Of a stretch of 64,000 bases of DNA, positions 52,088 through 62,318 are shown piece by piece. Both the position numbers and the translations under genes were made by a program. The stretch covers positions 512,001-576,000 of the forward strand of contig OZ223269.1 of NCBI GenBank assembly GCA_965140585.1, given 5' to 3'. The stretch is from Spirochaetia bacterium (lineage in GTDB: Bacteria; Spirochaetota; Spirochaetia; UBA9216). The notes beneath the pieces are model-generated. The model ran no database searches, was not told the DNA's origin, and worked only from the letters and a program-made list of their open reading frames with translations. The first letter of the stretch is position 1, and every line of letters begins with the position of its first letter.

Positions 52088-53935
52088 TTATAATATTTTT
52101 CTTCTTTCGAGTATCTCATCAGGAATATTGCTCAGCAGTTTAACAAGTTCATCAAATATGAAATCAACATCTACAACTGCTGCAACATTTCCTTCAGAGT
52201 TAAGTATCGGTTCGGCTATTGTAATAATCATACGGCCAGTATATTTTGAAAAAAACAAATCCGAAACAAAACGTTCCTTTTTATCAAGAACACTTTGAAA
52301 CCAGTCTTTCTCGGTGAAGTTTTTATTCATCAGATTTCGAAAACTGCCTTTATCACCTCTTTGTGTATAAACCTGGGAGAGCCGCTGGCCGTCAGTATTG
52401 ATTATGGAAAGCAGCTGGATTGAACCTTCTTCCTTTGCTATATTGTTAAGATATTTCTCCATTGTATCCGCATTCACCGAAAGCACTTCAGGAGAACCTG
52501 AAATCTTTTCGGCTATTCTTGTAGCCTTCAGAACTGCAGCCTTCTTAACCTTCTGAAAGTCTGATTCAAAAAGGGATGGAATATGATGTTTGGCCTGAGC
52601 AATCATTTCATCGGTTGATATACTCGTTGTCCGTCCCTGAGCATACTGCTCCATAACCCATTCATATATTCGTTTGACGCCGGGATGCCGTTTGCTAACT
52701 TCTACTGTATCCAGAGTGTTTTCAAATTTAACATAGTCGGTAAGCCAGGCGGCAATTCCGGCAGCACCTGCTTTATCAGTAATCATCAGTTTAAGCGGAC
52801 GATTAAGTAGTCTGCCCGTATCAAAAATGTTATAAATTTCTTCATTCTTTAATATTCCATCTGCATGTACACCGGCTCTCGTTGTATTGAATTCTTCTCC
52901 AATGAAGGGGTAATTAGTGGGAATTACAGCCTTGATAACATTACGATAGTACTCGGCAATCTCAGTAATTACTCTGGTATCAAGTTCTCTGTTGCTTCCT
53001 TTAAGTCCGATATATTCAATAACAGCGGCTTCAAGAGGCGGGTTTCCGGTTCTTTCGCCGTAACCAAGCAGAGAGGCGTTTAATGATGATGCTCCGTATA
53101 GCCAGGCTGTTGCAGCATTAGTATGTACCTTGTGAAAATCATTGTGCCCATGCCATTCCAGCCATTCGGATGGATAATCCGCTTCCTGCCGAAATGCATA
53201 CAAAAGCTTCGGAATACTTCTGGGAAGTACAGTCCCCTGGTATGATAGACCATATCCCATTGTGTCGCATAATCTTATCTTTACAGGTGTACCGCTTTCA
53301 TCAGCAAGCTTTTTAAGTTCCTGAGCAAAGGGTATACAGAATCCGTATATATCCGAGCGCGTAACATCTTCAAAATGACAGCGGGGAATTATTCCCTCAG
53401 AAAGGGCGGCTTTAACTATACCAAGATATTCATCCATTATCCGGACCCGGTTTTTTTTAAGCTTCAGGAAAATATGGTAGTCAGATACTGATGTCAGTAT
53501 ACCGGTTTCTTTAAGTCCGATTGATTTTACTAATTTGAAATCTTCAGCGTTAGCTCTGATCCAACCGGTAATTTCGGGAAATTTATAGCCGAGTGAAAGA
53601 CATGCCTCTACAGCTTCTCGGTCACGATGGCTATAGAGGAAGAACTCACTCTGTCTGATTATTCCGGAATCTCCTGCCAGCTTGTGCAGCATGGAAAAGA
53701 TTTCTTTTATCTGTAACGGTGTATAGGGAGAACGTGCCTGTTGCCCGTCGCGAAAAGTAGTGTCGGTTATCCAGATATTTTCCGGGAAATCCATAGGTAC
53801 TGTTTTACCGTCAAAAAGTATTTTTGGTACTTCAGAGTACGGAAACTGTTCACGATAAAGCTGCGGTTCCTTAACATCGATTAATTGATATCTGATGTCT
53901 GGTACAGTCATGAGGTTTGAGTATGAGTTTATCAT
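52088..53935 (-). CDS. Re-citrate synthase-like DRE-TIM metallolyase with C-terminal Cache-like domain
   Basis: ITDTTFRDGQQAR, RCHFEDVTR, HGHNDF, GERTGN and TRAGVHADG. Tail reads KDWFQSV..SDLFFSKYTGRMIITIAEPI..G..AVVDVD. Confidence 0.82.
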   Translation of the reverse strand: MINSYSNLMTVPDIRYQLIDVKEPQLYREQFPYSEVPKILFDGKTVPMDFPENIWITDTTFRDGQQARSPYTPLQIKEIFSMLHKLAGDSGIIRQSEFFLYSHRDREAVEACLSLGYKFPEITGWIRANAEDFKLVKSIGLKETGILTSVSDYHIFLKLKKNRVRIMDEYLGIVKAALSEGIIPRCHFEDVTRSDIYGFCIPFAQELKKLADESGTPVKIRLCDTMGYGLSYQGTVLPRSIPKLLYAFRQEADYPSEWLEWHGHNDFHKVHTNAATAWLYGASSLNASLLGYGERTGNPPLEAAVIEYIGLKGSNRELDTRVITEIAEYYRNVIKAVIPTNYPFIGEEFNTTRAGVHADGILKNEEIYNIFDTGRLLNRPLKLMITDKAGAAGIAAWLTDYVKFENTLDTVEVSKRHPGVKRIYEWVMEQYAQGRTTSISTDEMIAQAKHHIPSLFESDFQKVKKAAVLKATRIAEKISGSPEVLSVNADTMEKYLNNIAKEEGSIQLLSIINTDGQRLSQVYTQRGDKGSFRNLMNKNFTEKDWFQSVLDKKERFVSDLFFSKYTGRMIITIAEPILNSEGNVAAVVDVDFIFDELVKLLSNIPDEILERRKIL

Positions 53936-54047: not shown

Positions 54048-54953
54048 TTAGGTGGAGACGTTGTTTGTGGTTTGATTTGCCCAGTTGATGATTTCGACTA
54101 TATCATCTGAAACAAGATCTGCGGCTTTTAGGGCCTCTTCAGGCAAAGAAGATACAGCAGCACCCCCGGCTGAAATTCTAATCCCTGACCCGAATTCGCG
54201 CCTGACGGCTCTTATAATACCGGATGCAGTATTAATATTTTGATTCAGAGTCACAGAAATCAGCAGAATATCTGTTTGATTTTCTCTTAAATGATTAATT
54301 AACGCCCCTGCGGGGACCTGAGCTCCAAGAAATTGATTTTTCCACCCCGCATGCTCAAGCAGATAGCTGACTATTCGAAGTCCAAGTGTATGCTGCTCTC
54401 CGCTTGGAGTCATGCTGCATATAGTTCCCTTCAGAGGTAAGGAGTGGGTGGTGTGCGTGTGCACAGAAATTATGCATTCAAGGATTGTCTCACTTATTAA
54501 ATGCTCTTCTTCTACTCCGTATATTCCTTCATTCCATTCGTCACCCGTTTTTTGCAATGATGGTATAAGTAAATCAAGGAATATCTGCTCTTCACTGTAA
54601 AGTTCACTGTTCAGAAGATTGAGACAGAATTTTCCTGCTTCTGTTCTGGAGCTCAGACATATGCTAAGGAATTTTTCAGTTTCTTTTGTGAGTTCAGCAG
54701 ATTTACGGTAATTAAATGCCTGAGAGCTTGTCTGTGATTTATTGAAGTCTCTGCCTGTAAGTTTATCAAGGCTTGTATTAAAAAAGTCTGCAAGCTTTAT
54801 AAGTGTCTCAAGATCAGGGTTTCGTTTTCCGGTTTCATAGTTGGCTACTGCAGTCTGAACAATACCAATCTCTAATGCGAGTTTTTTTTGTGTGATTCCA
54901 TTTCTTTTTCTGTACATTCTGAGTTTATCAGACAATTCCTGATTCTGTTTCAT
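54048..54953 (-). CDS. XRE-HTH transcriptional regulator fused to a CarH-type cobalamin-binding module
   Basis: HTH_3-type N-terminus (ITQKKLA..ANYETGKRNP..SLDKL), W-x9-EH (WNEGIYGVEEEH), ExHxxG (EQHTLG), LLISVT and AGG. The ATG at 54953 is preferred. Confidence 0.88.
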   Translation of the reverse strand: MKQNQELSDKLRMYRKRNGITQKKLALEIGIVQTAVANYETGKRNPDLETLIKLADFFNTSLDKLTGRDFNKSQTSSQAFNYRKSAELTKETEKFLSICLSSRTEAGKFCLNLLNSELYSEEQIFLDLLIPSLQKTGDEWNEGIYGVEEEHLISETILECIISVHTHTTHSLPLKGTICSMTPSGEQHTLGLRIVSYLLEHAGWKNQFLGAQVPAGALINHLRENQTDILLISVTLNQNINTASGIIRAVRREFGSGIRISAGGAAVSSLPEEALKAADLVSDDIVEIINWANQTTNNVST

Positions 54954-54964
54954 AATTACAAAAT

Positions 54965-55039
54965 AACACAATATGTGGTTTTAGAAAAGATAAATTATTC
55001 GAGAAAGTTCTTTACAAACACAATATGTGGTATTACTTT
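54965..55039. promoter_or_regulatory. Twin operators overlapping divergent promoters
   Basis: AACACAATATGTGGT occurs at 54965-54979 and 55017-55031, 52 bp apart, with core palindrome CACA-ATA-TGTG. The second copy fills the spacer of TTTACA-17-TACTTT. Confidence 0.82.
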
Positions 55040-55059
55040 TGTTATATAAGGAGAATTAT

Positions 55060-56124
55060 ATGAAAAGTTCCAGAAATTACATAGCTTATACAATAATCAT
55101 CATATCCTCATTTATAGCTATTTCCTGCTCCTCAAGTGAAGCGGAAGATGTCAGTGCTGCAAGTCCAATCCCTGCAGAACCCGACCCTGTTTCAGTTGAA
55201 GCTTTTAAAGCTGATTACGGAAAGCTGGTATCATCAGTTGATGCCTCTGGACTTTTAAGGGGTGCGAAGGAAGCCTCGATTGTTGCAGAAACCTCCGGAA
55301 AGATTACCGCCATGAAAGCTGGAATCGGTGATTATCTTGAAGCCGGTGCATCTGTTTTAACTGTTGATGATTCAATTGCAGTTCTTAATCTAAAGCAGGC
55401 TGAACAGGATTTAGAAAGTATAAAGATTGACTATGATGCTGTTGAACGTGCTTATCGTAACGGCAATGCAAGTAATGCAGAATATATAAAGGCAAAAAGC
55501 GCTTATACAGGCGCAGAAGCCAGGCTGGAGCAGGCTCGGAAAAATTACGAAAATACTTCAATTGCTGCTCCTGTAGAAGGATATCTTGCAGATCTGAATA
55601 GCAGCCTTGAAGAAGGCAGCTATCTTTCTGCAGGAAGTCCAGTAGGCGTTATAGTAGATCTATCCGGTGTCAAAGTGGATGTTTTTGTCAGTGATGACGA
55701 TGTGGGAAATATATCAGAAGGAGCCCCTGCTGTAATAAAGGTAGACGGACTTGAAATTGTTTCAGAAGTAGAGGCCGTTGCACTCAGCAGTGACAGAGCA
55801 ACCGGCAGCTTTAAAGTGATTGTTTCTGCTGCTAATCCATACGGAACAAGAATCCGTTCCGGAATGCCTGCGGTGGTAAGTATTAATCCAGAGGTTGAAG
55901 ACAGCCTGGTTATACCTTCTGCTGCTGTGGTTAATTTCGGCGGCAGCAGTTTTGTATATGTTGAGCAATCCGGAAAAGCCAGGCTTACAGAGGTTGAACC
56001 CGGGAAGCTTGCCGGAGACCGGATAGAAATCAGATCAGGGCTTATGCAGGGAGAAATAGTTCTTGTTACCGGAATAAAGAGTCTTGCTGACGGATATCCT
56101 GTTATTTTCAGACTAAGGGACTAA
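55060..56124 (+). CDS. RND efflux periplasmic adaptor (MFP), lipoprotein
   Basis: Lipobox AISC, lipoyl halves, IAAPVEG, IRSGM and IPSAAV. SD AAGGAG precedes the ATG at 55060. Confidence 0.93.
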   Translation: MKSSRNYIAYTIIIISSFIAISCSSSEAEDVSAASPIPAEPDPVSVEAFKADYGKLVSSVDASGLLRGAKEASIVAETSGKITAMKAGIGDYLEAGASVLTVDDSIAVLNLKQAEQDLESIKIDYDAVERAYRNGNASNAEYIKAKSAYTGAEARLEQARKNYENTSIAAPVEGYLADLNSSLEEGSYLSAGSPVGVIVDLSGVKVDVFVSDDDVGNISEGAPAVIKVDGLEIVSEVEAVALSSDRATGSFKVIVSAANPYGTRIRSGMPAVVSINPEVEDSLVIPSAAVVNFGGSSFVYVEQSGKARLTEVEPGKLAGDRIEIRSGLMQGEIVLVTGIKSLADGYPVIFRLRD

Positions 56125-59100
56125 TGGAGAAGAATATGAATATTGGAAAGTTTTCAGTTAAAAACCCTGTTCTTCTGACTATACTTATGATAACTCTCAT
56201 AATATTAGGAACTTTCAGTATGCTGCAGCTTCCTCAGGAACAGTTTGCAGAGGTTCCTTTTTACTGGGTGAATATCATAGTTCCGTATCCCGGTGTTTCA
56301 GCTGAAGATATCGAATCTTCAGTTACCATAAAAATAGAAAACGAAATGGACGGCTTAAAGGATTTAAAGCGTATTCAGTCAGTAAGCAGTGAAGGTTTGA
56401 GTACCGTAAGAGTAGAATTTGATGACGGTATTACAAACGATGAGTTCGGGCGGTATATACAGGATGTTCAGACAAGATTTGCAAGAATTTCTCTACCGGA
56501 CGGGACTCTGCCGGCAATTATTGATGAGTTCTCTTCTGCTGACTTTCTGCCTGTAATTGAAGTAGCTGTCTATGGAAAAATTCCCTACCCGGTGATAGTA
56601 GAAGCCTCGGAGACTCTTGCTTCAGAAATGGAGAAAATTTCACAGGTGTCATCTGTAAGTACTGTAGGAGAACGTGAAAGAAAAATATTTGTTGATGCTG
56701 ACAAATCAAGACTCGAGTCTTTAGGAATAACAATCAGCCAGATTGTAAGAACTATTCAGTCCAATACCGGAAATTACCCCGGTGGTGATTTTAAAACAAG
56801 CGGAAGAGAATACCTTGTGCGCACTGTTGCAGAAGCAGATACATCGGATAGTTTTGATAAACTTATAGTAAGGACAAGCGACTCAAGTGGTGTCGTGCGG
56901 ATAGGTGATATTGCAGAAGTTAAATCTGTTTTTTCTGATTCAGGTGAATATGTCAGGTTTAATGGTGAAGATGCAGTTCTTTTAAAAGTTGCAAAAGTTG
57001 CCGGCGGTGATGCGTCTTCGATAGTTGCAGGAGTGAAAGCTGCCGTTTCAGAATTTCCCTACCAGGAATATCCGGGAATTAAAATACAGCTGCAGAATGA
57101 TTCCACAATTCAGATCAAAGACAGTATAGGCGTTCTGCTGAATAATGCTATGCTAGGACTTATTCTTCTGGTAATAATACTTATTGTTTTTATCGGTTTG
57201 AGAAATGCTATTATGACAGCGTTAGGAATTCCTGTCACATTTGCTATTACGTTTCTGATACTCGATTATCTTGGTGAAACTTTTAACACTAATACGCTTT
57301 TTGGTCTTGTTCTTGTCCTCGGTCTGATTGTTGATCACGCTATAGTCATTATAGAGAACAGCTACCGGCTTCAGCAGGATGGATTAAGCAGGCGGGAAGC
57401 TGCGGTCAAAGGTGTCAATCAGGTTGTAATTCCTGTAATTGCGGCAACAGGTACTACTGTGGCGGCTTTTCTTCCTTTGATGATACTTCCGGGAACCATA
57501 GGTCGATTTCTTCGGATTATTCCTTTAACCGTTTCCATAGCCCTTATCGCCTCCACATTCGAAGCAATTGTATTTATCCCCAGTCACTATGCAGACTGGC
57601 CCTCTGCAAAAACTAAAAAACGTAAAGACTGGTTTATTCCGGTGCGCAATCGTTATAAGAAAATTATTTCATCTGTATACCGGCACAGGGGATTAACTGT
57701 AATCATCTTTATTGTAATGATGCTTGCATCATTTGCTCTGGTGCCCGGGCTTAACCAGGATCTTTTCAGTGCCGAAGATTACAGCTTGTTTTATGTGAAT
57801 ATTGAAATGGCGCCTGGAACTCGGCTCGAGAAAACCCTTGATGTTGTTTCGGAAATGGAAGCCGAATTATTTCCGTTTATCGGCAATGGTGAAATTACTT
57901 CTATTACTTCATCTGCTGGATATTCAGGTGGGAGTTCCGGAAACCTGAGCGGTAACAATGTTGCCCAGATTACTGTCGACCTTGAAGAGGTTAAAGACGG
58001 ACGCACGCGTTCAATACCCGAAATAATCGAGGATGTTAAAAATATTCTGAAAAAGGTCCCCGGGCCTGAAAAAGTTATTTACCGTAAAGCCGCTAACGGT
58101 CCGCCAGTTGAACAGGCTTTCACCATCAGATTCGAAGGTGATGATTATGAAGATCTTAAAACCGTTTCCGCCCTTATTCAGGATAAATTGAGAACATATA
58201 ATGCCCTTGTAAATATCGAAGATAATCTTCAGAACGGTAAACCTGAAATCAGGCTTAAAGTTGACAGTGAACGTGCAAGTGCTTTGGGTGTTTCGGTTGC
58301 AGATGTGGGAAACTTTGTCAGAGCTTCGTTTGACGGAGTCACGGCAACAACAATATTCAGAAAAAATAAAGAGACTGATGTAGTTGTAAGATACAGTCTT
58401 GAAAGACCTGTCGAATTCAGACTGGTTAATCAGATGAAAATTCCTTCCTCCTCAGGAGTCCTTGTGCCTTTTACATCGATCGGTTATGTCGAGCAGGAAG
58501 AGGGCTTTTCATCGATAAAGCGTGTTGACGGAAGAAGAGAGATTACCATTTCTGCAGACGCGTACAATGATGATGCTGTTCCTGAAATAAACACATCAAT
58601 CGAAGAATTTTTTAATACTGAAATATCGCCTGTTTATCCTGAAATTGAGCTGAAGGTAGGAGGGGAGTTCGCAGAGCTTTCAAATCTTATAATCAATATT
58701 CTGAGGCTCTTTCTTATAGGAGCCTTCCTGATTTATTTAATTCTCGGTGCACAGTTTAATTCATATACTCAGCCTGTTTTAATACTGCTGACAGTTCCAT
58801 TTGCTTTTGCCGGCGTTGTCCTTTACCTGTTTTTCTCAGGAACTCCTTTTTCAACTACCGTTCTTTATGCCGGTGTAGCGCTTGCTGGTATCGCAGTAAA
58901 TGATTCTATTGTACTGATCAGCTTTATTAATGAGTTAAAGGAATCAGGTCTGAAAACCGGCGATGCGGTAGTAGAGGCGGCTGCTACGAGGCTGCGTCCA
59001 ATTATGCTTACATCTTTAACAACAATAGCCGGGCTTCTTCCGACAGCGCTCGGTCTTGGAGGAAAGTCTGTAGTCTGGGGTCCTATGGCAACTACCATTG

Positions 59101-59201
59101 TTTTCGGTCTGATATTTTCTACAGCCACAGCACTCCTGTTTATACCGTCATTCTACGGTTTTCTGTACGACCGGAAAAGGAGAATAAAAAATGAGAAATA
59201 A
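56124..59201 (+). CDS. RND efflux permease (AcrB/HAE1-like)
   Basis: FSVKNPV, YPGVSAEDIE, GLIVDHAIV, TTVAAFLP and RLRPIMLTSLTT motifs. Confidence 0.95.
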   Translation: MEKNMNIGKFSVKNPVLLTILMITLIILGTFSMLQLPQEQFAEVPFYWVNIIVPYPGVSAEDIESSVTIKIENEMDGLKDLKRIQSVSSEGLSTVRVEFDDGITNDEFGRYIQDVQTRFARISLPDGTLPAIIDEFSSADFLPVIEVAVYGKIPYPVIVEASETLASEMEKISQVSSVSTVGERERKIFVDADKSRLESLGITISQIVRTIQSNTGNYPGGDFKTSGREYLVRTVAEADTSDSFDKLIVRTSDSSGVVRIGDIAEVKSVFSDSGEYVRFNGEDAVLLKVAKVAGGDASSIVAGVKAAVSEFPYQEYPGIKIQLQNDSTIQIKDSIGVLLNNAMLGLILLVIILIVFIGLRNAIMTALGIPVTFAITFLILDYLGETFNTNTLFGLVLVLGLIVDHAIVIIENSYRLQQDGLSRREAAVKGVNQVVIPVIAATGTTVAAFLPLMILPGTIGRFLRIIPLTVSIALIASTFEAIVFIPSHYADWPSAKTKKRKDWFIPVRNRYKKIISSVYRHRGLTVIIFIVMMLASFALVPGLNQDLFSAEDYSLFYVNIEMAPGTRLEKTLDVVSEMEAELFPFIGNGEITSITSSAGYSGGSSGNLSGNNVAQITVDLEEVKDGRTRSIPEIIEDVKNILKKVPGPEKVIYRKAANGPPVEQAFTIRFEGDDYEDLKTVSALIQDKLRTYNALVNIEDNLQNGKPEIRLKVDSERASALGVSVADVGNFVRASFDGVTATTIFRKNKETDVVVRYSLERPVEFRLVNQMKIPSSSGVLVPFTSIGYVEQEEGFSSIKRVDGRREITISADAYNDDAVPEINTSIEEFFNTEISPVYPEIELKVGGEFAELSNLIINILRLFLIGAFLIYLILGAQFNSYTQPVLILLTVPFAFAGVVLYLFFSGTPFSTTVLYAGVALAGIAVNDSIVLISFINELKESGLKTGDAVVEAAATRLRPIMLTSLTTIAGLLPTALGLGGKSVVWGPMATTIVFGLIFSTATALLFIPSFYGFLYDRKRRIKNEK

Positions 59202-60651
59202 ATTAATAATTCTGTTTATGATATTAGGCGCAGGGTCTTCTGTTTACGGAAGTGATTTTAATGATCTTATAGATGCTGCACTTACTTCTGATAATAAGCT
59301 TAAAGCAGCGCAGTCATCATACAGTTCGGCAATAGCCGGGGCAGCGGCTGAAAATCTGTCTACACTTCCAGGCCTGTCATTTACAACCGACAGTAATAGC
59401 CCCCTCTACAAATACAGTCTGGGTGAAGACTACTATTCATATCCGGTGGAGAGAAAACGAAAGCATACCGCCGGAGCAGGTCTTGCTCTGGATACACTCC
59501 TTCCCGGGGGAGGTCTGCTGAATCTCAGCGGAAGCGGCAGCCTTTTAATTTCTTCTCCAGCTGATGAAGAAACGCTGAGTTATTTCATAACTCCCTCAGC
59601 AGGATTGTATTTTAGGCAGCCGCTGTTTACCGACCGAAGTTCAGAATCTATGATACGATTTGACTCAATAAAGCTTGCCAGAGAATTAACAGTTTTAAGC
59701 GTCAATTCCGAAAGCCGGTCGGTACTAAATACTGAAAATGCTCTTGTTATATCGGTCTATTCTGCTGTTGTAAAAGCCCTGTCAATTAAAATGTCACTCG
59801 AAGTAATTGAACAGAGGATCGCAATTTCTGCTGATTCTCTAAAGCTTGCAGCTGAGGATGAAGCCTCAGGCAAAATAAGCAGGCTGGATTTTATTGCCGA
59901 AGAACTGTCGCTTAGAAGACTGGAAGATATCAGCAGAGAGCTGTCTTACCAGTATGAGGCGGCTTTACGTGATATAAAAAATATTACTGGAAATGAACTG
60001 GTAAAAATGCCTGAGCTTCCACTGATTAAACCTGATAAGACCATGCTGGCAGAACTTGAAGCGGAATTGTTCAGCGGAGCTGTACAGGTACAGGCAGCTT
60101 CTGAACTGAAAAGAATACTGGAAATTCAATCTGCGATTCTTCCTGACGGCACTGAGCCTGTTTTAGAAGTTACTGCAGTGATAAATCCAGGAAATACAGA
60201 TTCTGCCGATGATTTTTTTGAGGCATATGATAATCTTGGTGAAGCCGAATTAAACGCCCAGCTGACTGTAGCTCTTTCATTCGGCCTGATAGACTGGGGT
60301 GAGAATAAAAAAAGAAGAGAATCTGATAAAGCAGAAATTGAAGCTGCTCACTACCTTTTTGAAGATGCTCTAAGGCAGGTAAGTCTTTCATTTGAGAGTG
60401 GCCTGGATTCAATAAAGAATATAGACAGACAGCTTGAATTAATTGAAACGGAACTTGTCTATGATCTTGATCTGCTGGAAAGAGAAAAAAGCCGGGAGCA
60501 GGCTGGTCTTTCAACTTCGCTTGCAGTGAAGGCTGTAGAGCTTGATTACAATGAACAGCTGAATCAGAAGCAATTGCTCATGAATCAGAGGACTCTGGCG
60601 GTATTGAATCTCTACAATATTTCGGGCAGAAGGCTGGCTGAAATATTTTAG
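59191..60651 (+). CDS. TolC family outer membrane efflux protein
   Basis: Signal peptide, alternating helical and beta OEP halves (QPLF, GKIS, GLST), and position after the RND gene. Confidence 0.82.
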   Translation: MRNKLIILFMILGAGSSVYGSDFNDLIDAALTSDNKLKAAQSSYSSAIAGAAAENLSTLPGLSFTTDSNSPLYKYSLGEDYYSYPVERKRKHTAGAGLALDTLLPGGGLLNLSGSGSLLISSPADEETLSYFITPSAGLYFRQPLFTDRSSESMIRFDSIKLARELTVLSVNSESRSVLNTENALVISVYSAVVKALSIKMSLEVIEQRIAISADSLKLAAEDEASGKISRLDFIAEELSLRRLEDISRELSYQYEAALRDIKNITGNELVKMPELPLIKPDKTMLAELEAELFSGAVQVQAASELKRILEIQSAILPDGTEPVLEVTAVINPGNTDSADDFFEAYDNLGEAELNAQLTVALSFGLIDWGENKKRRESDKAEIEAAHYLFEDALRQVSLSFESGLDSIKNIDRQLELIETELVYDLDLLEREKSREQAGLSTSLAVKAVELDYNEQLNQKQLLMNQRTLAVLNLYNISGRRLAEIF

Positions 60652-62318
60652 CCTTCTGTCTCTTTTATATATTTATTGATTTTGTTGGAAGCGGAAGGCT
60701 GGCTGATATTCAATTCTGCGGCTACACCTGTTGATGTACCGTGTTTTTTGTACGCATCAATTATCAGTCTTCGCTCTACTGATTCAAGAATATCTTTCAG
60801 GGAACTGCTGCTGCTTGCTGTATGAAAGATGCTGGCCTTGATTTTTGTAGGCAGCTGTTCTTCGCTTATCATGTAGTCATCGGAAGTGAGAATCATTCTT
60901 TCTATTAGATTCTCAAGTTCCCTGATATTACCCGGCCAGTCGTATTCGACAAGGTAGTCTATCACAGTTCCGGAAAGGGTTCTCTTGAGCCCGTACTTCT
61001 TTCCGATTACATTAACAAAATGATTGGCCAGAGTAAAAATATCTTCCTTCCTGTCTCTCAAACCGGGGATTTTAATGGTTATTACATTAAGCCGGTAATA
61101 AAGATCTTCCCTGAATGAACCCTCATGAACGAGTTTCTCCAGGTTCTTATTTGTAGCTGCGATAAGCCTGAAATCTACTTCCTTCAGGTTTGCTCCGCCG
61201 AGCCGTATAATTTTCTTTTCCTGGATTGCCTTCAAAAGCTTAACCTGCATGTGAAGCGGAAGATCTCCGATTTCATCAAGAAAGAGGGTTCCTTCGTTCG
61301 CAAGTTCAATCAGTCCGGGTTTGCCTTCTTTGCTGGCTCCACTGAATGCTCCCTTTTCATAACCGAATAGTTCCGATTCAAGTAGACTTTCGGGAATTGC
61401 CCCACAGTTTATTTCAATAAACGGGCCTTCACTTCTACCGCTTTGGGAATGCATAATCTTGGCGAACATTGTTTTACCGACACCTGATTCTCCAAGAAAA
61501 AGTACGTTGGCATCAAATCTGGAGATCTTGAGAAGAGTTGCTGATATATTTTTAATTACCTGTGAGCGGCCGATTATTGAAGGAACAGGATCACGATCAT
61601 TTCGCAGGCGGTCAATTTCGGCACTGTATAGTTTTAATGTATCTTCGAGGTTTTCGTATTCATCTTTAAGTGTCTGATATTTGGTTATGTCACGGGTATA
61701 GCTTACAACTTTTTCAATGTTTCCATCCTTGTCTTTTATCGGGATTGCGGTACACATAAGATATTTTCCTGCTCCGGTAAGCTGCAGGAGGGTTTCTGTA
61801 TTTCCGGATTTAAATACTCTGATGGCAACGGAAGGATTAAAAATCTTTTTCTCTTCCATTTCAAAAATTGTTTTTCCGATAGCTTCCTGTCTTGAGATTC
61901 CGTACATAGTCTCGAAATTGGGCATAGCGCTGACAATTACTCCATAGCGATCAATTATTACAAAGTCGTCATGAAGTACACTCAGCATATTAAGAAACTC
62001 ATCTTTCATTGACTGAATTGAGGATAGAGAAAAGGCGGCATCTTCAATATGTGTTGAATCAGAAATAAGACATAGCAGCAGCTCCTGCCCTGCAAGACTG
62101 TAGATATGTATTATAAACTCTTTATCTTTATAAATGAAAAGCAAAAACTCCTGATTCTTTTTTTCATCTCTTGTGCGGATAAGTTCTATAGTCTGTTCAA
62201 GAGAGTTGCCGTTGCTGAAAAAACTGGTAAAAGCCTGATTAGTTTTTATGAGCTGATATTCAGAATCCAGCAGAATTACCGGCTCGGTAAACAGGTTTAT
62301 ATCTATTCTTTCAGTCAA
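60648..62318 (-). CDS. PAS-domain sigma54-dependent activator
   Basis: PAS domain, GESGVGKT, ESELFGYEKGAFSGA, LFLDEIG, WPGNIREL and a C-terminal HTH. Confidence 0.94.
   Translation of the reverse strand: MTERIDINLFTEPVILLDSEYQLIKTNQAFTSFFSNGNSLEQTIELIRTRDEKKNQEFLLFIYKDKEFIIHIYSLAGQELLLCLISDSTHIEDAAFSLSSIQSMKDEFLNMLSVLHDDFVIIDRYGVIVSAMPNFETMYGISRQEAIGKTIFEMEEKKIFNPSVAIRVFKSGNTETLLQLTGAGKYLMCTAIPIKDKDGNIEKVVSYTRDITKYQTLKDEYENLEDTLKLYSAEIDRLRNDRDPVPSIIGRSQVIKNISATLLKISRFDANVLFLGESGVGKTMFAKIMHSQSGRSEGPFIEINCGAIPESLLESELFGYEKGAFSGASKEGKPGLIELANEGTLFLDEIGDLPLHMQVKLLKAIQEKKIIRLGGANLKEVDFRLIAATNKNLEKLVHEGSFREDLYYRLNVITIKIPGLRDRKEDIFTLANHFVNVIGKKYGLKRTLSGTVIDYLVEYDWPGNIRELENLIERMILTSDDYMISEEQLPTKIKASIFHTASSSSSLKDILESVERRLIIDAYKKHGTSTGVAAELNISQPSASNKINKYIKETEG

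Follow-up and report, generated by a model that had tools for sequence, protein, structure and literature searches.

The 64,000-nucleotide stretch of DNA analysed here (hereafter the window; positions 512,001 to 576,000 of contig OZ223269.1, Spirochaetia bacterium, GCA_965140585.1) carries a regulator gene transcribed divergently from an RND efflux pump operon, and two exact copies of the 15-bp sequence AACACAATATGTGGT lie 52 bp apart within the 106-bp gap between the regulator gene and the first pump gene, that for the periplasmic adaptor (MFP). In the 301-aa regulator, probably a one-component transcription factor, a CarH-type cobalamin light-sensor module is joined to an XRE/Cro-type helix-turn-helix (HTH) head. 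With moderate confidence, we propose that this protein is a cobalamin-dependent repressor of both the pump and itself, relieved by light. The finding suggests that some anaerobic bacteria switch on export pumps in response to light.

The regulator gene is located on the minus strand (54048..54953), as defined by its open reading frame (ORF), translation and Pfam domains. The ORF spans 54048-54971(-), and initiation at the ATG at 54953 yields the 301-aa protein; a TTG at 54971 would add six residues that are present in no relative, and the N-termini of the family match the ATG at 54953. The Pfam scan identified HTH_3 at aa 11-65 (3.1e-17, 62.8 bits against a cut-off of 23, all 55 profile positions covered), the four-helix cap B12-binding_2 at aa 112-157 (6.9e-07) and the Rossmann domain B12-binding at aa 183-286 (1.1e-15), the latter two also over the curated Pfam cut-offs. 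The order of XRE HTH, helical cap and Rossmann domain, as claimed in the original prediction, was thus confirmed for all three domains. The XRE-clan models HTH_19, HTH_31 and HTH_26 were matched in addition to HTH_3, no MerR model was matched by the regulator in the same scan, and the head matches the solved PDB chains 7t8i, 1adr and 2wiu. Against the NCBIfam CarH model (NF052513, TransRegCarH) the regulator scored 43.5 bits, the cut-off being 400, and only residues 117-241 were aligned.

Within the cobalamin module, the pocket motif of the cap reads GDEW-NEGIYGVEE-EH (W140-x9-E150-H151) in the translation, the cobalt-ligand motif reads GEQHTLG (E186-x-H188-x-x-G191), and a GxxxP element follows as GAQVP (G210-P214), so that the W-x9-EH and ExHxxG motifs noted earlier were both recovered. 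By regular-expression search, all four elements GxxW, EH, GxxH and GxxxP are present in the regulator in this order. According to Yu et al. 2024 (PMC11796333), this signature was derived and validated on light-responsive cobalamin-binding domains (CBDs) and separates them from the cobalamin domains of enzymes and carriers, the counterparts of the signature residues in CarH being W131, E141, H142 and H177. Across 107 aligned relatives, G137, W140, E150, H151 and H188 never vary, and conservation is at least 90% for G210 and P214. The regulator quite probably binds cobalamin.

The structure predicted by AlphaFold2 (AF2) from the 107 relatives is in agreement with this assignment. The model has a mean pLDDT of 93.8, with a low-confidence linker at aa ~67-85 (pLDDT 53 in block 71-80). 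The best Foldseek matches, each with a probability of 1.00, are AerR, CarH, the CBD of CtMerR and the photocobilins, with target TM values of 0.84 for CarH (5c8a), 0.80 for 8jbs and 0.77 for AerR (7te2). When the family profile was compared with solved structures, the CtMerR CBD 8jbs ranked best (9.2e-36), followed by the photocobilins 8j2x (5.6e-35) and 8j2w, both at about 6e-35; the uncharacterised cobalamin-binding proteins 1y80 and 4jgi gave about 1e-24 and CarH gave 1.7e-20. Corrinoid methyl-transfer proteins were at 8e-23 or weaker, and methionine synthase was also below CtMerR and the photocobilins. For two full-length copies of the regulator, ESMFold2 gave a predicted pairing score of 0.81 (median of three runs) against 0.00 for the best control, passing a mark that 20 of 30 proteins with solved pair structures, and 1 of 23 solved as single chains, also reached. 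The runs share at least 83% of contacts, with partner pLDDT of at least 83, and the predicted interface is head-to-tail, the cap helices 102-173 being set against the Rossmann segment 200-221. Since a CarH-like complex has already been solved, however, this pass may reflect likeness only.

The two copies of AACACAATATGTGGT are candidate operators, and each lies inside one of the divergent promoters, which were placed by eye and by orthology and not by the consensus scan. On the regulator side (minus strand), the putative -10 element TATTTT (54960..54965), read by eye and from orthology, is preceded by TGT and forms an extended -10, the TG being the complement of 54967-54968; a weak putative -35, TTTTCT (54983..54988), was assigned from its position, at which orthologues carry TTGCAT or TTGTTT. 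Operator A (54965..54979) lies within this promoter, in its 17-bp spacer and over its extended -10. Because the -10 is only 6 nt before the ATG and there is no Shine-Dalgarno sequence, the regulator mRNA is probably leaderless. On the pump side (plus strand), operator B (55017..55031) fills 15 of the 17 bp between a putative -35, TTTACA (55011..55016; TTGATT or TTGTTT in the orthologues of genus g4), and a -10 assigned from orthology, TACTTT (55034..55039; 3/6 matches), at which position orthologues carry TATAAT, TATTAT or TATCAT. The Shine-Dalgarno sequence AAGGAG (55049..55054, plus strand) is 5 nt before the ATG of the MFP gene. The original prediction had described identical sites in the pump spacer and over the extended -10 of an apparently leaderless regulator gene, and this description was borne out.

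AACACAATATGTGGT is a near-palindrome of the form A(A/C)CAC-N5-GTG(G/T)T, in which AACAC is paired with the complement of GTGGT and the half-sites are one helical turn apart. XRE-type heads bind such palindromes as dimers, as known for the 434 and P22 repressors. The core CAC-N5-GTG occurs in the 64-kb window only at these two positions. A search of the whole genome (4.85 Mb) for AMCAC-N5-GTGKT detected 7 sites, the reversed control pattern giving 6, and of the 7 only this pair is close together. The scan for additional sites that had been proposed as a check thus gave no evidence for further targets; with a count close to that of the control and a single adjacent pair, the regulon looks local.

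For comparison of the locus, 41 related genomes were searched and nine larger regions were retrieved. The divergent arrangement of a regulator and MFP-RND(-OMF) genes (OMF, outer-membrane factor) was found in six of the nine regions (G001, G007, G004, G006, G009 and G032). The G001 regulator is 88% identical to that of the window; in the second genus of the same family (G007, G004, G006 and G009) the identity is 35-41% for the regulator and about 65% for the permease, and in G032, a member of another family, it is 31% and 51%, respectively. The divergent pump arrangement is not present at G040, at G018 or at the second copy in G009. The G040 locus (G040:C2, about 81377-83167; L017 / L035) instead carries two tandem paralogues of the XRE-CBD type, 34% and 27% identical to the query, and no pump adjoins them.

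Across the six loci from the family to which the window belongs, the CAC-N5-GTG core is kept in both sites while the 5-bp centres and the flanks vary. Both sites lie within the 17-bp promoter spacers, the pump -35 being TTGATT, TTGTTT or TTTACA, and on the regulator side the geometry of a -10 (TATTTT or TAAATT), 6 nt and the start codon is retained in all six. This conservation in 6/6 orthologous loci supports the interpretation, made earlier, of the two sites as operators of a repressor. The spacing between the two sites is 52, 52, 50, 51, 50 and 49 bp in these loci, a drift that amounts to some 100 degrees of helical phase and speaks against a strict requirement for the same face of DNA. The proposal that oligomers bridge both operators at a distance of five turns is therefore unsupported, and operator bridging with helical phasing was rejected as a supported claim. 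Back-to-back promoters with one site in each spacer explain a spacing of about 50 bp without helical phasing, although a tetramer touching both sites is possible, given the flexible linker.

Photolyase genes adjoin the pump operon in two of the related loci, the ORF beginning 2 nt past the OMF gene in G006 and 220 nt past it on the same strand in G007. The G006 operon (L016 66-3505, minus strand) also holds, past the photolyase and on the same strand, a gene for a 466-aa FMN_red/flavodoxin-like protein, together with one for a 201-aa YfbR-type (5'-deoxynucleotidase) HD-domain protein.

The regulator belongs to a large family. A word-indexed homologue search returned the regulator itself and one 88% relative only, and the family became visible when 1.84 billion cluster representatives were scanned in full with HMMER, giving 36,241 matches at E <=0.001, many of them to the HTH only. 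Of 151 sequences examined (the query and the best 150 representatives), 117 contain G..W-x9-EH and are about 280-345 aa in length; 107 of these were aligned, ten two-stretch, truncated or longer forms being omitted. The aligned relatives share 23-39% identity with the query, except for one row at 88%, and the HTH residues Q22, Q33, N38, Y39, E40, R44 and P46 are invariant. No curated family or source name was found for XRE-CBD proteins, no NCBIfam model being reached at its cut-off and six cluster records carrying no source name. The earlier statement that this architecture had not been described is overstated, both for the size of the family (117/151) and because HTH domains are mentioned among the outputs fused to light-responsive CBDs by Yu et al. 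2024 (PMC11796333).

A pattern scan with one genome per prokaryotic species detected 207 relatives among 235 pattern matches. All locus counts below rest on the best 80 of these 207 relatives, for which the hosts are Spirochaetota and Bacillota, including Clostridium, Proteiniclasticum, Youngiibacter, Tissierellia and Halanaerobiales. The regulator ORF was callable in 75, and the signature is present in 71 of the 75. Of 70 family loci, 35 have the CAC-N5-GTG core upstream of the regulator, with at least two copies in 9, against a background of 0.17 per kb, indicating that this type of operator is family-wide and not restricted to one clade, in agreement with the invariant HTH residues.

With two neighbours per side clustered and spot-checked by Pfam, a divergent MacB-type ABC exporter was found at 25 of 75 loci and an RND pump at 7 of 75, of which 5 are divergent (L022-L025 and L095) and 2 downstream (L091 and L097). 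The latter count answers the survey for XRE-CBD proteins beside RND operons that had been suggested as a check, and such pairs do recur. A DNA photolyase lies within 6 kb at 13 of 80 loci (tblastn, one photolyase query); 8 of the 13 are MacB loci with the photolyase on the strand of the exporter, and at the RND-linked locus L095 the photolyase is co-directional with the regulator and overlaps the end of the regulator gene. In a quick maximum-likelihood tree of the regulators (IQ-TREE), the window regulator and the divergent-RND spirochaete loci L022-L025 form one clade (SH-aLRT 99), and the MacB-linked regulators form a separate clade (support 97), so that efflux was coupled to the sensor at least twice; L095, L091 and L097 are long branches of unsure placement. 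Among the immediate upstream neighbours (70 scanned by Pfam) were B12-binding (15), FtsX (11), MacB_PCD (11), MCPsignal (8), HlyD_3 (5), GGDEF (4), DNA_photolyase (3) and Amino_oxidase (2, amine-oxidase or phytoene-desaturase-like), and among those downstream (69 scanned) were Zip (7), Response_reg (4), HMG-CoA synthase (3), ACR_tran (2), SQS_PSY (phytoene synthase, 2), UvdE (1) and GlutR_N (1). The earlier view of the protein as a light sensor thereby gained indirect support, as the CBD is closest to light-responsive CBDs and genes for photolyase and carotenoid-type enzymes recur nearby.

At 14 of the 25 MacB loci, all in a Bacillota clade (L028 (5212-5871, minus strand), L032, L042, L050, L052, L060, L065, L073, L074, L080, L084, L085, L089 and L092), the divergent operon opens with a stand-alone cobalamin-domain protein of ~220 aa, followed by the MacB-type permease, the ABC ATPase and often a photolyase. 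This stand-alone protein, which adds a second cobalamin protein of a different kind to the regulon, keeps ExHxxG and GxxxP and has, in place of the GxxW-x9-EH pocket, a shorter W-N-E-H.

Based on these observations, we can propose a mode of regulation. In the dark and with cobalamin bound, the regulator would pair head-to-tail through its cobalamin domains, as a dimer at least, and the two HTH heads of the dimer would occupy the 15-bp palindrome A(A/C)CAC-N5-GTG(G/T)T. A promoter whose spacer or extended -10 is occupied by a protein is closed to RNA polymerase, and with the sites in both spacers occupied, the polymerase would be blocked at the pump and regulator promoters alike. The oligomer or its grip on DNA would be loosened when light removes the upper cobalt ligand by photolysis, or when the cofactor is missing, and both the pump and the regulator would be derepressed. 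The pump may then represent one arm of a light-stress response, to which the regulon of the relatives adds DNA photolyase. The direction of the dark/light switch and the oligomeric state on DNA are what we infer for this scheme. That the protein is an autoregulated repressor of the pump acting through the two sites is highly probable, and light is fairly likely to be the physiological signal; taken together with the estimate for cobalamin binding given above, these leave the statement as a whole at the moderate confidence with which it was introduced. The substrate of the pump may be guessed to be an endogenous or environmental photosensitiser, and export of tetrapyrroles or damaged corrinoids is pure speculation.

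Several observations weigh against a cobalamin- and light-dependent repressor of this kind. The consensus promoter scan called neither of the intergenic promoters, and no terminator was called in this region either; the same scan called 2 other promoter-like sites, against a shuffle mean of 3.5. The pump promoter was left uncalled because its -10, TACTTT, is poor, matching at only 3 of 6 positions. The pump operon of the window itself carries no photolyase, and the photolyase of this genome is encoded on another contig (C4) with no such operator nearby. The neighbour counts are not independent, since many of the loci are close kin, and the hosts are mostly anaerobes of Spirochaetota and Bacillota, for which light sensing has no obvious need. 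No experimental study of an XRE-CBD protein was found in the searched literature. The residue following the pocket Trp is Asn141 in the regulator and Glu in most of the family, where TtCarH has His132. In TtCarH, His132 forms the bis-His light state and the H132A mutant is unable to monomerise, as stated in PMC11796333, so that in the window regulator the step from light to DNA release cannot run as in TtCarH. The position of this His is taken by Arg in CtMerR, by Gln in SasPcob and by Tyr in AbDPcob, and yet all three are reported in PMC11796333 to be light-responsive through other rearrangements.

The supply of the cofactor is a further point on this side. Searches of the window genome (98.5% complete) and of G001 (99%) revealed no adenosyltransferase of the PduO type (PF01923) or of the CobA type (PF02572); PF01923 presumably also covers the EutT-type enzymes. 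CobA is present in the sister genus (G007, G004 and G006) and in G032. Without a recognised adenosyltransferase, the organism would have to take up adenosylcobalamin (AdoCbl) or produce it with an enzyme that escaped recognition, unless a different form of cobalamin serves, and AdoCbl as the specific cofactor in this organism is uncertain. On the supporting side, the organism does use cobalamin: its genome contains CobS, two B12 riboswitch matches over the Rfam cut-off and seven ORFs besides the regulator that match B12-binding over the cut-off, and CbiG was not found in it; from this gene content the genus looks like a corrinoid salvager. One strong cobalamin riboswitch (76 bits; G000:C3:85329-85528, plus strand; L102, G000:C3:83829-87028) is followed by two ORFs of 171 aa and at least 292 aa without a Pfam family, which may be a candidate system for corrinoid uptake or handling.

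Three other explanations deserve consideration. The regulator could report corrinoid availability or the redox state of cobalt, for example on exposure to oxygen, and not light, and would adjust the pump to that signal. The largely anaerobic hosts, the resemblance of the genus to a corrinoid salvager (CobS present, CbiG and adenosyltransferase not found), the missing equivalent of CarH His132 and neighbours without an obvious tie to light (8/70 MCP and 4/70 GGDEF upstream, 7/69 Zip downstream) all fit such a sensor. The adenosyl-pocket elements GxxW and EH, however, are invariant and mark light-responsive CBDs in PMC11796333; photolyase, UvdE and carotenoid-type genes recur near the regulators, with photolyase directly after the pump in G006 and G007; and genes for B12 transport or biosynthesis do not stand out among the scanned neighbours. 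We consider this explanation unlikely.

Efflux regulators are commonly induced by the substrates of their pumps, and a cofactor-independent repressor, in which the CBD is an oligomerisation scaffold and the inducer is the pump substrate or an antirepressor, would act in this way. ESMFold2 pairs the domains without cofactor, and the model for such a protein is CarA of Myxococcus, described in PMC9304148 as a B12-independent paralogue of CarH. A vestigial cobalamin site would not be expected to keep the cobalt-ligating His188 and W140, E150 and H151 invariant over 107 relatives, and among the genes next to the regulator no small antirepressor-like one is conserved; a repressor of this type is accordingly rated as very unlikely. 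The two 15-mers might, lastly, be promoter or other duplicated sequence, with the pump under other control, and part of their conservation could indeed be that of the promoter elements they overlap. Against this, the core is kept in both sites of all six loci while centre and flanks vary, it sits in the spacer, which normally has no conserved sequence, and it is found upstream of 35/70 family members in other phyla regardless of the neighbouring gene. There is hardly any likelihood left for duplicated promoter sequence.

The pump operon consists of three co-directional genes on the plus strand, and the earlier claim of a complete RND operon divergent from the regulator holds, since MFP, RND and OMF genes were all identified. 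The MFP (354 aa, 55060..56124; HlyD_3; TIGR01730, 168.8 bits against a cut-off of 94.9) is probably a lipoprotein, as judged from an N-terminal hydrophobic stretch ending in ...AISC. The inner-membrane permease (1025 aa, 56124..59201; ACR_tran, 623 bits) is of the multidrug (HAE1-like) type; its closest solved chain is MexK (2.5e-98), with other multidrug pumps next, and no named NCBIfam equivalog was reached for it, the best model being RND_permease_2 with 492.8 bits against a cut-off of 1250. The TolC-like OMF (486 aa, 59191..60651) matches OEP in two stretches (77.6 bits). With overlaps of 1 nt (MFP/RND) and 11 nt (RND/OMF), the three genes are translationally coupled.

The gene beyond the regulator (52088-53935, minus strand) encodes a 615-aa protein with an HMGL-like domain (homocitrate/isopropylmalate synthase-type) and a C-terminal dCache/PDC sensor, an unusual fusion of an enzyme with an extracellular-type sensor. 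Convergent with the pump, a gene for a PAS-containing sigma-54 enhancer-binding protein (60648-62318, minus strand) overlaps the OMF gene at the stop codons. Both genes are also found at the G001 locus, the former adjoining the regulator (96% identity) and the latter beside the pump (95% identity), and tblastn was negative for both in the regions fetched from the other genus.

To our knowledge, the B12 photoreceptors known from experiments are few, namely CarH/LitR, AerR, CtMerR and the photocobilins, and these either carry a MerR head or are devoid of a DNA-binding domain. The outputs known for them are pigments, photosystems and the control of enzymes. If the proposed mode of regulation holds, a different DNA-binding head with a defined and conserved operator would provide a directly testable switch, efflux pumps would be a new class of output for B12 photoreceptors within the searched literature, and strict or facultative anaerobes in sediments, mats, guts and reactors would be seen to invest in light sensing. 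The combination of exporter and photolyase under one regulator leads to a concrete hypothesis on light stress in such organisms, testable because cultured strains of Clostridium, Proteiniclasticum and Youngiibacter belong to the family. A wider generalisation, that light-gated RND or MacB efflux, often with photolyase, is a widespread and unrecognised form of photoprotection in anaerobes, controlled by the XRE-headed family in Spirochaetota, Clostridia and their relatives, is tentative and rather doubtful. If true, the pumps would expel endogenous photosensitisers such as free porphyrins, corrinoid photoproducts or flavins before reactive species form, and a repressor released by green light from a simple 15-bp palindromic operator would become available as a new optogenetic part.

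In the searched literature, no paper was found on an XRE regulator combined with a B12 photoreceptor or on a B12 photoreceptor combined with an efflux pump. TrtA of Treponema denticola was rejected as a precedent because it is an XRE protein of 104 aa that has no cobalamin domain, and P2TF was rejected because its entries are MerR-B12 proteins. The known system closest in action is that of CarH and the class I LitR proteins (Thermus thermophilus, Myxococcus xanthus and Bacillus megaterium), which are AdoCbl-dependent photoreceptor repressors. An N-terminal DNA-binding domain followed by the cap and Rossmann domains, the W-x9-EH pocket, the lower-ligand His of ExHxxG, the predicted head-to-tail pairing, an operator over the target promoter and, within the family, loci with photolyase and carotenoid-type genes are common to both. 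In contrast, the winged helix of CarH/LitR is of the MerR type, whereas the window regulator has an XRE/Cro HTH_3, its output is an RND efflux pump, and the His132 equivalent is Asn. The operator of TtCarH is reportedly made up of tandem direct repeats; that of the window is a 15-bp inverted repeat, present twice. The regulator would work like CarH/LitR and is not a member of that group, for it has no MerR head, scores far below the cut-off of the CarH model and lacks His132.

The CBD of CtMerR (8jbs/8jbt) and the photocobilins (8j2w, 8j2x and 8j2y; Yu et al. 2024, Zhang et al. 2024 "group 2") share the same four motifs, likewise without His132, but are fused to MerR, photoglobin or enzyme domains, and no XRE head or known operator is associated with any of them. 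AerR of Rhodobacter capsulatus (7te2), the top Foldseek match (9.5e-11), is a cobalamin-dependent light-responsive regulator; by sequence it is far weaker a match than CtMerR or CarH, and it is reported to have no DNA-binding domain and to act through CrtJ. The XRE/Cro-CI repressors (P22 C2, 434 and ImmR-type; HipB) resemble the window regulator in the HTH_3 head, the palindromic operator and the proposed autoregulation from divergent promoters, but have a C-terminal peptidase, a dimerisation domain or a toxin partner where the window regulator has the cobalamin module. On the side of the output, the light-inducible crt operon of Corynebacterium glutamicum, controlled by CrtR, holds an RND-superfamily exporter, which, according to PMC6739363, might remove a compound that turns toxic when lit, its inactivation being without phenotype. 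As described there, CrtR is a MarR-type regulator without cobalamin, and its exporter is an actinobacterial-type RND protein in a carotenoid cluster; this operon is nevertheless the nearest precedent for light-induced export.

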